NCBI GenBank assembly: GCA_000165345.1
Contig: CM000431.1
Location: 160,001-224,000 of the forward strand
Direction of reading: 5' to 3'
Length of the DNA stretch: 64,000 nt
The position numbers and the translations under genes were made by a program. The notes below the pieces were generated by a model. That model saw only the letters and a list, made by a program, of their open reading frames with translations. It was not told the origin of the DNA and did not search any database. The first letter of the stretch is position 1, and each line of letters begins with the position of its first letter. This document shows, piece by piece, positions 38,832-40,204 of the stretch.

Positions 38832-38951
38832 GCAATCGGCCATACTACATCGAATATACCGGATCCCATCAGAACTCCGAAGTCAAGCGGTGTAAGGTTC
38901 GGTTAGTACTAGGGTGGGGGACCACCTGGGAAGACCAGAATGTCGATCGCC
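38832..38951 (+). rRNA. 5S ribosomal RNA (copy 1 of 3)
   Basis: The 120-nt sequence GCAATCGGCCATACTACATCGAATATACCGGATCCCATCAGAACTCCGAAGTCAAGCGGTGTAAGGTTCGGTTAGTACTAGGGTGGGGGACCACCTGGGAAGACCAGAATGTCGATCGCC has the eukaryotic 5S signature blocks GGCCATAC, GATCCCATCAGAACTCCGAAGT, GGTTAGTACT and CCTGGGAAGACC. Helix I pairs GCAATCGGC with GTCGATCGC. A T5 run immediately follows (Pol III terminator). Confidence 0.88.
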
Positions 38952-39404
38952 TCCTTTTTAAATTTTTTTTCTTACCATTTTTATAATTTTTAAAACTAAT
39001 CTATATTGTACTAAAGGTGGGTAGTTTTACTTTATAACTAATTTATCTAGATAAAAAAAGTTTTAAATTGTAATCACTCGATTATTGCTCTATTTTTAAT
39101 ATTATAGAGAATAAATAGCGGGCTTCAAGGAAAATTATTCTTACTTTTCTATAATGGCTGCATGCAAGCAATATAATTAAATTTAGTGCATTTGAAGTTT
39201 ATATTACGTGGAAAAAAAATGAATTAAAATGAATTAAAAATTATTACCGCCATTAATTTAATTAAAATTTTATTCTGAACAGAACTATAATACAAATAAA
39301 AAAAGTTATTTTGATTTATAGTAATTAACAACAATTAAAAAATAATCATTATTATATTAATCTCTAACCCTGAAAAAGGGGAAAAATCAAAAAAATTAAA
39401 AAGA

Positions 39405-39524
39405 GGCGATCGACATTCTGGTCTTCCCAGGTGGTCCCCCACCCTAGTACTAACCGAACCTTACACCGCTTGACTTCGGAGTTCTGATGGGATCCGGTAT
39501 ATTCGATGTAGTATGGCCGATTGC
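39405..39524 (-). rRNA. 5S ribosomal RNA (copy 2 of 3; convergent with copy 1)
   Basis: Identical 120-nt sequence on the minus strand with a T-run after the 3' end. The 5' flank (aatttgaagtYaccaccag) is shared with copy 1, which indicates an inverted duplication. The track ORF 39364-39546 is an artefact of this gene. Confidence 0.88.
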
Positions 39525-40084
39525 TGGTGGTAACTTCAAATTGCATTACTATATTAATTTTTTCATTTTTTTTTATTAATTAAATATATCAAAAATATTA
39601 ATATTAGGGATCCTAGATACTTATTATTGGTTGTTAAAAAAAAAAAATTAAAGAGTAGAGAATGATTGAAGCATGTTTGAATAACTTTTAAATCAATTTG
39701 CTGTTATTTTCAATTATTTAATCCTACTATTTATTTAAAAGTAAAAGTTGCTTTTAGTACGCTTTTTCCTTATATATAAATATTCTTACATGCAAAATTG
39801 GTTTTTAGTTTAAAATACTCCCAATGCAAACTTCCCGCCTTTTTAAAATTATTAAAATATTTTTTTCATGAATCAATTGTAAATAAAAATGGATAACGGT
39901 TTTATTTAACCCGCCACTTTATATATTTAAAATGGAATTTAATACTAAAAACTAAACAAAAATAAAACGATGAAATTGTAAATATAACTTATTGAAATAA
40001 TTCATTTTGCCAATCAAACAATAAGTTCTTTTAATTAAGATTAAATATTAGTTATTAACAAAATTAATAAAAATCTAAAAAGAA

Positions 40085-40204
40085 GGCGATCGACATTCTG
40101 GTCTTCCCAGGTGGTCCCCCACCCTAGTACTAACCGAACCTTACACCGCTTGACTTCGGAGTTCTGATGGGATCCGGTATATTCGATGTAGTATGGCCGA
40201 TTGC
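40085..40204 (-). rRNA. 5S ribosomal RNA (copy 3 of 3)
   Basis: Identical 120-nt body on the minus strand. The flanks diverge immediately outside the gene: the 5' flank is ...accgtCAGCAATCGG, against ...caccAGCAATCGG in copies 1 and 2. A T5 run follows the 3' end. The track ORF 40041-40232 is an artefact. Confidence 0.88.

Follow-up and report, generated by a model that had tools for sequence, protein, structure and literature searches.

The 5S ribosomal RNA (rRNA) cluster on chromosome 3 of Cryptosporidium parvum very probably comprises three functional, identical 120-nucleotide (nt) genes that recombine with each other. The cluster lies at positions 38,832 to 40,204 of the window analysed here (64,000 nt; GenBank assembly GCA_000165345.1, contig CM000431.1, forward-strand positions 160,001 to 224,000), and its two outer genes enclose an interior segment that is inverted between C. 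parvum on the one hand and C. hominis and C. tyzzeri on the other. Taken together with the copy-number differences and the within-species similarity of genes and flanks, this inversion points to a small array whose copies have undergone homologous recombination, with inversion, conversion, and deletion or amplification of units as the outcomes, rather than to a fixed inverted duplication.

The cluster is itself an ordinary, annotated and published 5S feature, to which the comparative detail presented here is a modest and new addition. Six 5S genes are known in Cryptosporidium, three of them clustered on chromosome 3 and three on chromosome 7. For the cluster on chromosome 3, C. parvum IOWA-ATCC and C. 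meleagridis TU1867 were described as having three genes each and C. parvum BGF as having two; in BGF, 2–3x read compression at the locus led to the suggestion of copy-number variation or assembly collapse (PMC11655656). These published chromosome-3 clusters are at the same locus as that of the window, and the variation between two and three copies was reproduced in the assemblies compared here. A first-pass annotation, made from the sequence of the window, had treated the presence of three 5S genes as a taxonomic clue to Cryptosporidium. That count is out of date, there being six genes in two clusters (PMC11655656); the assignment to Cryptosporidium is nonetheless right, and three neighbouring open reading frames (ORFs) are exact matches to the C. 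parvum Iowa II proteins EAK89199 (acyl-CoA synthetase), EAK89198 and EAK89195 (GST-like protein). Copy orientation, the inversion between species, homogenisation of the flanks and the element at −29 were unmentioned in the literature searched, although the inversion may sit in supplementary structural-variant tables.

Identity and geometry of the three 5S rRNA genes

We searched the whole window with the Rfam covariance models at gathering thresholds. Four matches were obtained, namely three 5S genes and one transfer RNA (tRNA) gene; each 5S copy matched RF00001 over the complete model (1–120) with 102.5 bits, far above the gathering score of 38. The three copies (coordinates in Table 1) are identical over the full 120 nt and stand in a +/-/- layout, in agreement with the first-pass annotation, which had also placed copies 1 and 2 correctly as a tail-to-tail pair 453 nt apart (38952–39404). 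Copies 2 and 3 are separated by 560 nt, and the start spacings are 573 and 680 nt. A 12-mer scan revealed no further 5S fragments in the window, and a permissive Rfam search (E up to 10) of the whole 2.3-kb gap that holds the cluster returned only the 5S genes, except for an algC match that was dismissed as chance level (18.3 bits against a threshold of 33.8). An exact-match scan of Joint Genome Institute (JGI) metagenome contigs with a 44-nt 5S core gave no match.

The RNA structure is well preserved. On 11 distinct Cryptosporidium 5S sequences, 95.2% of cells were paired according to the Rfam structure, as compared with 22–46% when the partners were slid. Pair 17-61 shows a compensatory U-A to C-G change, and several G-U pairs change to G-C or A-U. 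The 5S three-way-junction structure is thus maintained; the variation is small, which limits the support from covariation. The three genes are genuine full-length 5S rRNA genes.

The cluster does not form a head-to-tail tandem array with one orientation and a regular unit; only copies 2 and 3 are directly repeated. A 1994 title by Taghi-Kilani et al. in Gene 142:253 reportedly announces three tandemly repeated 5S rRNA-encoding genes from C. parvum; "tandemly repeated" does not fit all three genes of the chromosome-3 cluster.

Inversion of the interior segment between species

We then compared the window with the syntenic loci of 18 further assemblies or contigs, covering 10 species in all. These loci were fetched by means of the GST-like protein and its orthologues; their 5S copies were located by nhmmer and confirmed by Rfam, with scores of 93.7–107.1 bits. 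The arrangements are listed in Table 1. The first copy is on the plus strand and the last on the minus strand in every spanning contig, so that the outer genes are always convergent, and copy number across the loci is 2, 3 or 5. Throughout, the last copy lies ~300–450 nt upstream of the GST-like gene (335 nt in the window, where that gene starts at 40540), a position kept in ten species. The C. ubiquitum contig breaks inside the last copy, and the short-read/Logan contigs (L004, L008, L013, L014 and L021–L023) all start inside copy 3, which is the pattern to be anticipated where a repeat disrupts assembly.

The interior of the C. parvum cluster, 1133 nt in length, aligned in the forward direction with C. 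parvum ATCC (1133/1133) and C. meleagridis (925/1054), whereas it aligned only as the reverse complement, and then throughout its length, with C. hominis (1038/1104) and C. tyzzeri (1062/1116), at 94–95% identity; no forward alignment to C. hominis or C. tyzzeri was obtained. Outside the outer genes, C. parvum and these two species are colinear up to the 5S genes. From one arrangement to the other, copies 1 and 3 keep their 5' flanks but trade their 3' flanks; the breakpoints therefore lie at or inside the outer 5S genes. The spacings are swapped as well (573/680 vs 670/574 nt), consistent with inversion. The interior has the properties of an invertible segment: it is bounded by inverted repeats that are identical over 120 nt (for copies 1 and 3, the repeat can be followed over 177 nt at 90%), it occurs in both orientations, and its breakpoints fall within the repeats. 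All assemblies of any one species agree in a single orientation. The simplest mechanism would be for the outer 5S genes, which are inverted repeats, to undergo reciprocal exchange at points that lie in the genes or a few nt away from them.

An orientation difference of this kind could also arise in assembly, if a unique segment between identical inverted repeats were placed arbitrarily. The 5S repeats do break short-read/Logan contigs, two assemblies have two copies, and read compression was reported at the locus (PMC11655656). We consider such an artefact quite unlikely: four C. parvum and four C. hominis independent assemblies, from different projects and spanning two decades, are consistent for each species; the perfect repeat is only ~120 nt, below read or read-pair length; and a reference-guided error would replicate the C. 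parvum orientation, not reverse it. Alternatively, the middle copy might have been gained independently, in a different orientation in each lineage, in keeping with a copy number that varies (2, 3, 5) and with the spacers of C. canis and C. felis, which cannot be aligned to C. parvum. This we hold to be highly improbable, since the complete interior is orthologous as a reverse complement between C. parvum and C. hominis/C. tyzzeri, at the identity given above, and independent insertion cannot yield that. Independent gain is contradicted for C. parvum, C. hominis, C. tyzzeri and C. meleagridis; in C. canis it may have occurred.

A neighbour-joining tree constructed from two flanking genes (one 6.5-kb locus) gave the branching order ((((((tyzzeri, parvum), hominis), meleagridis), chipmunk), canis), felis), ryanae, with C. 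parvum and C. tyzzeri as the closest pair in 273 of 300 bootstraps. On this tree, the orientation states call for at least two changes within the parvum/tyzzeri/hominis/meleagridis group, and for one more in C. canis if its middle copy is orthologous; therefore, the segment appears to have flipped repeatedly. We put forward only tentatively, as possible rather than probable, that the 1.13-kb interior is a recurrently flipping segment, with at least 2–3 flips in the genus, perhaps still heterogeneous within populations together with gain and loss of units.

Copy-number change, gene conversion and shared flanks

The flanks of the two-copy assemblies are hybrid. In C. parvum BGF, the minus-strand copy combines the 5' flank of copy 3 with the 3' flank of copy 2, and the first copy of C. 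hominis TU502-2004 combines the 5' flank of copy 1 with the 3' flank of copy 2. Such hybrids are what exchange within the directly repeated pair of each species' arrangement would produce, whether it took place in the parasite or in the assembler. The direct repeat (D1) covers 173 nt at 90%. At the other extreme, the five-copy cluster of chipmunk genotype I includes a degenerate copy (L016 7870–7990, minus strand) of 121 nt, scoring 93.7 bits vs 102.2 in the neighbouring copies, with an altered helix IV/loop region and no T run downstream; this is probably a decaying member of an amplified array.

The first-pass annotation had regarded the site as a likely one for gene conversion, and the comparative data bear this out. 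Species-specific substitutions in the gene are common to all copies within a species (e.g., at pair 17-61, and at positions 16/62 in C. canis). The similarity reaches into the 5' flank that copies 1 and 2 had been noted to share over about 20 nt: in the window, these flanks match at 18/20 positions from −20 to −1, and within C. meleagridis, chipmunk genotype I, C. felis and C. ryanae they are identical (20/20), whereas the orthologous −20 to −1 flanks of C. parvum and C. meleagridis match at 15/20 only. Identity within species exceeds that between orthologues, and homogenisation therefore extends past the gene into the flank. A substitution in the gene suggests that conversion is more frequent between copies 1 and 2 than with copy 3. 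In C. meleagridis (L005/L006, 8348–9033), copies 1 and 2 carry T112C, a G-U to G-C change in helix I, and copy 3 retains T; the same C variant at 112 was observed in copy 1 of C. canis and of C. felis.

The shared flank had been interpreted as the signature of an inverted duplication, not a tandem array. That interpretation fails in C. hominis and C. tyzzeri, in which the interior is inverted and the middle copy, with the same flank, lies direct to copy 1; copies 1 and 2 have this flank in common in C. parvum, where copy 2 is inverted, and equally in C. hominis, where it is direct. Because the orientation is changeable and the flank is re-homogenised, neither records how the duplication arose. 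A single in-situ inverted duplication that made copies 1 and 2, with the +/-/- layout as its static relic, would still account for the inverted position of these copies in C. parvum, for the 35/45 nt of 5' flank common to them (−45 to −1) and for the inverted repeat that joins them (I1, 222 nt at 86%). The universal convergent outer pair and the two copies of C. ryanae, which match at 44/45 nt of flank, also make an event deep in the genus plausible. We nevertheless regard a static relic as unlikely, given that the orthologous middle copy lies direct to copy 1 in C. hominis and C. tyzzeri with the whole interior flipped, and that the flank similarity is renewed within species. A small array subject to continued recombination is the reading that we prefer.

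Promoter-like elements and terminators

We examined the flanks of the 5S genes for positioned motifs. Of 14 non-redundant flanks, taken from 7 species, 11 have TATRRT starting exactly at −29 and one further flank has it at −32; the background in the window is 0.0022 per nt per strand. The extended form TATRRTMAYG occurs at 9 sites in the window vs 2.8 expected, three of the nine being the −29 elements of the 5S genes, and in C. xiaoi, which is outside the 14-flank set, all three copies have TATAAC at −29. CA is found at −2/−1 in 13 of the 14 flanks, and the upstream regions are otherwise divergent. Copy 3, the flanks of which had been described as unrelated to those of the other copies, shares TATRRTMAYG at −29 to −20, CA at −2/−1 and the T5 run, in addition to the 177-nt repeat at 90%. 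T4–T8 runs follow every intact copy in ten species, the exception being the degenerate chipmunk copy; in the window, TTTTT stands 2–3 nt past each gene, as expected from the Pol III-type (RNA polymerase III) terminators that had been assigned to the three copies. Positions ~49–97 of the gene, which are invariant or nearly so across species, resemble the TFIIIA-bound box A, intermediate element and box C of Xenopus 5S genes.

This layout suggests Pol III genes with an upstream TATA-like element plus an internal control region. Upstream TATA-like elements near −25 to −30, alongside an internal control region, are reported for 5S genes of fungi, plants and insects. The Cryptosporidium genes likewise show an A/T-rich TATA-like element ~29 nt upstream and a pyrimidine-purine CA before +1; the extended consensus TATRRTMAYG, unlike the fungal, plant and insect elements, appears to be Cryptosporidium-specific, with a putative promoter role. 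We know of no experimental study of Cryptosporidium Pol III promoters. The tRNA-Glu (CUC) gene of the window (22377–22450, minus strand; Rfam 62.5 bits at 22378–22450, also found by ARAGORN) has a TATA-like TATACTAA at about −31 to −24 and a T5 run 3 nt past the gene, a layout loosely like that of the 5S genes. A scan for bacterial promoters and terminators (20 promoter-like sites vs 15.8 expected, no terminators) was set aside as irrelevant for a eukaryote.

The same features bear on whether the copies might be dispersed 5S pseudogenes, with the functional genes elsewhere, for example on chromosome 7. A second cluster does exist there (PMC11655656), and one chipmunk copy is degenerate, as described above. 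The first-pass annotation had held that additional arrays elsewhere would mark the copies as pseudogenes, yet the copies are not made pseudogenes by the chromosome-7 array. We give this possibility next to no credence: the three full-length copies have one and the same sequence and a top score, they preserve the RNA structure together with the −29 element and the terminator, and their position is conserved in ten species.

Spacer sequences and overlapping ORFs

The GGCGGGAAG and GTGGCGGG boxes that had been noted in the copy 2–3 spacer do occur there, on the minus strand. The GGCGG core of GGCGGGAAG is conserved in C. parvum, C. hominis, C. tyzzeri and C. meleagridis, with C. tyzzeri differing at one box position, and the GGCGGG core of GTGGCGGG is conserved in the same four species, with two bases 5' of it varying in C. 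hominis and C. meleagridis. For GGCGGG, 10 occurrences were counted in the window vs 1.3 expected (~8-fold), mostly between long ORFs and often just upstream of one (sites include 8826, 13168, 17495, 22566, 35386 and 44628). Since it is enriched between ORFs across the window, it is a general intergenic motif and not a 5S-specific one, which fits a general promoter motif of the genome; we take it to resemble the E2F-like motif reported for Cryptosporidium promoters.

A further block in the copy 2–3 spacer (39666–39830) comes close to the 5S genes in conservation, with 80–95% invariant columns among the four species. On the minus strand, the block adjoins or contains GGCGGGAAG, two TTTGCAT-type motifs and TATTTATATATAAGG, along with a TATA-like stretch, and a T12 run follows ~100 nt later. 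A small RNA gene was considered here and dropped, as the fold is no better than that of shuffled sequence (z = −0.42) and there is no Rfam match. By nhmmer, the block was found only in three-copy parvum, hominis, tyzzeri and meleagridis assemblies, and not in two-copy assemblies or in more distant species. It may be a promoter or a short unstructured transcript.

Two ORFs of 60 and 63 amino acids had been flagged as artefacts of the RNA genes that would contaminate protein annotation. They are indeed artefacts, which read through 5S copies 2 and 3 in the sense direction; neither has an exact copy in a 15-billion-sequence protein collection, and no homologue of the 63-aa peptide was found among a 5.8-billion-cluster protein collection. 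Contamination of protein annotation is a risk, not a fact.

Table 1 Features of the chromosome-3 5S rRNA cluster in the window, and arrangements of the syntenic clusters.
Feature or locus	Position	Strand or arrangement	Remarks
5S rRNA copy 1 (outer left)	38832..38951	+	RF00001, 102.5 bits; transcribed inward
5S rRNA copy 2 (middle)	39405..39524	-	RF00001, 102.5 bits; orientation varies among species
5S rRNA copy 3 (outer right)	40085..40204	-	RF00001, 102.5 bits; transcribed inward
Interior segment between convergent outer 5S genes	38952..40084		1133 nt; block inverted between species
Direct-repeat unit (copy 2 + spacer to copy 3)	39405..40084		680 nt; missing from two-copy C. parvum BGF
TATA-like element copy 1, TATGATAACG	38803..38812	+	−29 to −20; candidate upstream promoter element
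TATA-like element copy 2, TATAGTAATG	39544..39553	-	−29 to −20; candidate
TATA-like element copy 3, TATGGTCATG	40224..40233	-	−29 to −20; candidate
T5 run after copy 1	38955..38959	+	3 nt past gene
T5 run after copy 2	39398..39402	-	2 nt past gene
T5 run after copy 3	40077..40081	-	3 nt past gene
GGCGGGAAG box, copy 2–3 spacer	39831..39839	-	sequence
GTGGCGGG box, copy 2–3 spacer	39910..39917	-	sequence
Spurious ORF, 60 aa (amino acids)	39364..39546	-	sense read-through of 5S copy 2
Spurious ORF, 63 aa	40041..40232	-	sense read-through of 5S copy 3
C. parvum: window, L001 (IOWA-ATCC), L002, L020		+/-/-	spacing 573 and 671–680 nt
C. parvum BGF (L003)		+/-	spacing 573 nt
C. hominis L009, L010, L011, L024		+/+/-	spacing 670 and 573–575 nt
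C. hominis TU502-2004 (L012)		+/-	two copies
C. tyzzeri (L015)		+/+/-	
C. meleagridis (L005, L006)		+/-/-	
Chipmunk genotype I (L016)		+/-/-/-/-	five copies, one degenerate
C. canis (L017)		+/+/-	
C. felis (L018)		+/-/-	
C. xiaoi (L025)		+/-/-	
C. ryanae (L019)		+/-	

Genomic context

The window has 31% G+C and is dense with long uninterrupted ORFs; the cluster occupies a 2288-nt gap between divergent genes at 35603–38251 (minus strand) and 40540–42288 (plus strand). Orthologues of EAK89195 in other assemblies carry 3g670-type locus tags. The left neighbour, an 882-aa ORF (35603–38251), has no Pfam match, and its exact sequence is absent from the protein collection; C. parvum assemblies annotate it with 621, 659 or 882 aa, and the gene models are thus inconsistent. 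In C. ryanae and C. xiaoi, an FG-GAP/ITFG1-like gene stands in place of this ORF. The cluster therefore lies at a synteny break, and is linked only to the GST-like gene.

Beyond the GST-like gene, the window and Logan contigs both show a cathepsin-like Peptidase_C1 gene (42658–43542, minus strand) in the form of a 107-aa and a 176-aa ORF; in curated assemblies it is annotated with one product of ~412 aa over ~1.55 kb. It probably contains introns rather than being broken. Isolated N characters (381 N in total) occur at 24457–25650 and 51550–52123, the second stretch within ORF 50063–53200, and their scatter suggests low-quality base calls of an older Sanger-era assembly.

Discussion

The proposed course of events at this locus is as follows. 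Each gene would most likely be transcribed by RNA polymerase III, from a promoter made up of the internal control region, the TATA-like element at −29 to −20 and the CA before +1, with termination at the T5 run 2–3 nt past the gene. The outer genes point inward, and Pol III transcription would therefore be directed away from the neighbouring RNA polymerase II promoters. The copies would recombine because they are identical. Exchange between the inverted outer copies would flip the 1.13-kb interior, giving +/-/- in C. parvum vs +/+/- in C. hominis; exchange between directly repeated copies would remove or add units, resulting in 2, 3 or 5 copies; and gene conversion would prevent divergence within a species, both of the genes and, for copies 1 and 2, of ~20–45 nt of 5' flank.

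Several points weigh against this account. The structural evidence comes from finished assemblies, not reads, and the repeats here trouble assemblers; the two-copy states may be assembly collapses, given the 2–3x read compression in BGF (PMC11655656). Next to one breakpoint, ~75 nt have diverged in C. hominis and do not align. The branching of C. parvum, C. tyzzeri and C. hominis was obtained from one 6.5-kb locus, and if C. hominis and C. tyzzeri are sisters, one inversion suffices in that group. The internal control region overlaps conserved RNA structure, and its conservation is by itself uninformative. The 5' and 3' ends, the use of Pol III and the promoter role at −29 are deduced from sequence, and should be taken as predictions.

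Homologous recombination between inverted repeats is familiar from the flip-flop isomers of plastid genomes and from bacterial inversions between inverted rRNA operons. The Cryptosporidium locus resembles these systems in having a unique segment between identical inverted repeats, both orientations, and breakpoints within the repeats. It is unlike them in that the repeats are only ~120–177 nt and the orientations are seen between species and not, so far, within a population; no dedicated recombinase is implied.

Among apicomplexans, Plasmodium provides a comparison. According to PMC12235521, which refers to Shippen-Lentz & Vezza 1988 for the three-gene locus, the 5S loci of Plasmodium falciparum (chromosome 14) and P. 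berghei (chromosome 10) are, like that of Cryptosporidium, composed of three linked genes at very low copy number, and 5S is unlinked to the 18S-5.8S-28S units in both genera. The Plasmodium genes are described there as head-to-tail, at a single locus, and flanked by the Pol III genes for tRNA-Pro and signal recognition particle (SRP) RNA. The Cryptosporidium cluster differs in that the outer genes converge, the middle gene flips, a second cluster exists and the neighbours are protein-coding.

For annotation, the three 5S rRNA genes should be labelled, the two overlapping ORFs suppressed, and "three genes" replaced by six in two clusters. Recombining identical genes would also explain why assemblies disagree on copy number at this locus. 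The −29 element, which has a fixed position, offers a testable hypothesis for an upstream element of Pol III promoters. The structural difference between C. parvum and C. hominis is consistent, and could be typed by polymerase chain reaction (PCR); if recurrent flipping is true, the segment would serve as a PCR-typable marker separating C. parvum from C. hominis and C. tyzzeri, and as a natural indicator of homologous recombination in Cryptosporidium where the repeats are very short. In this very compact apicomplexan genome, identity between genes of 120 nt would suffice for deletion and amplification of units as well as for inversion and conversion.

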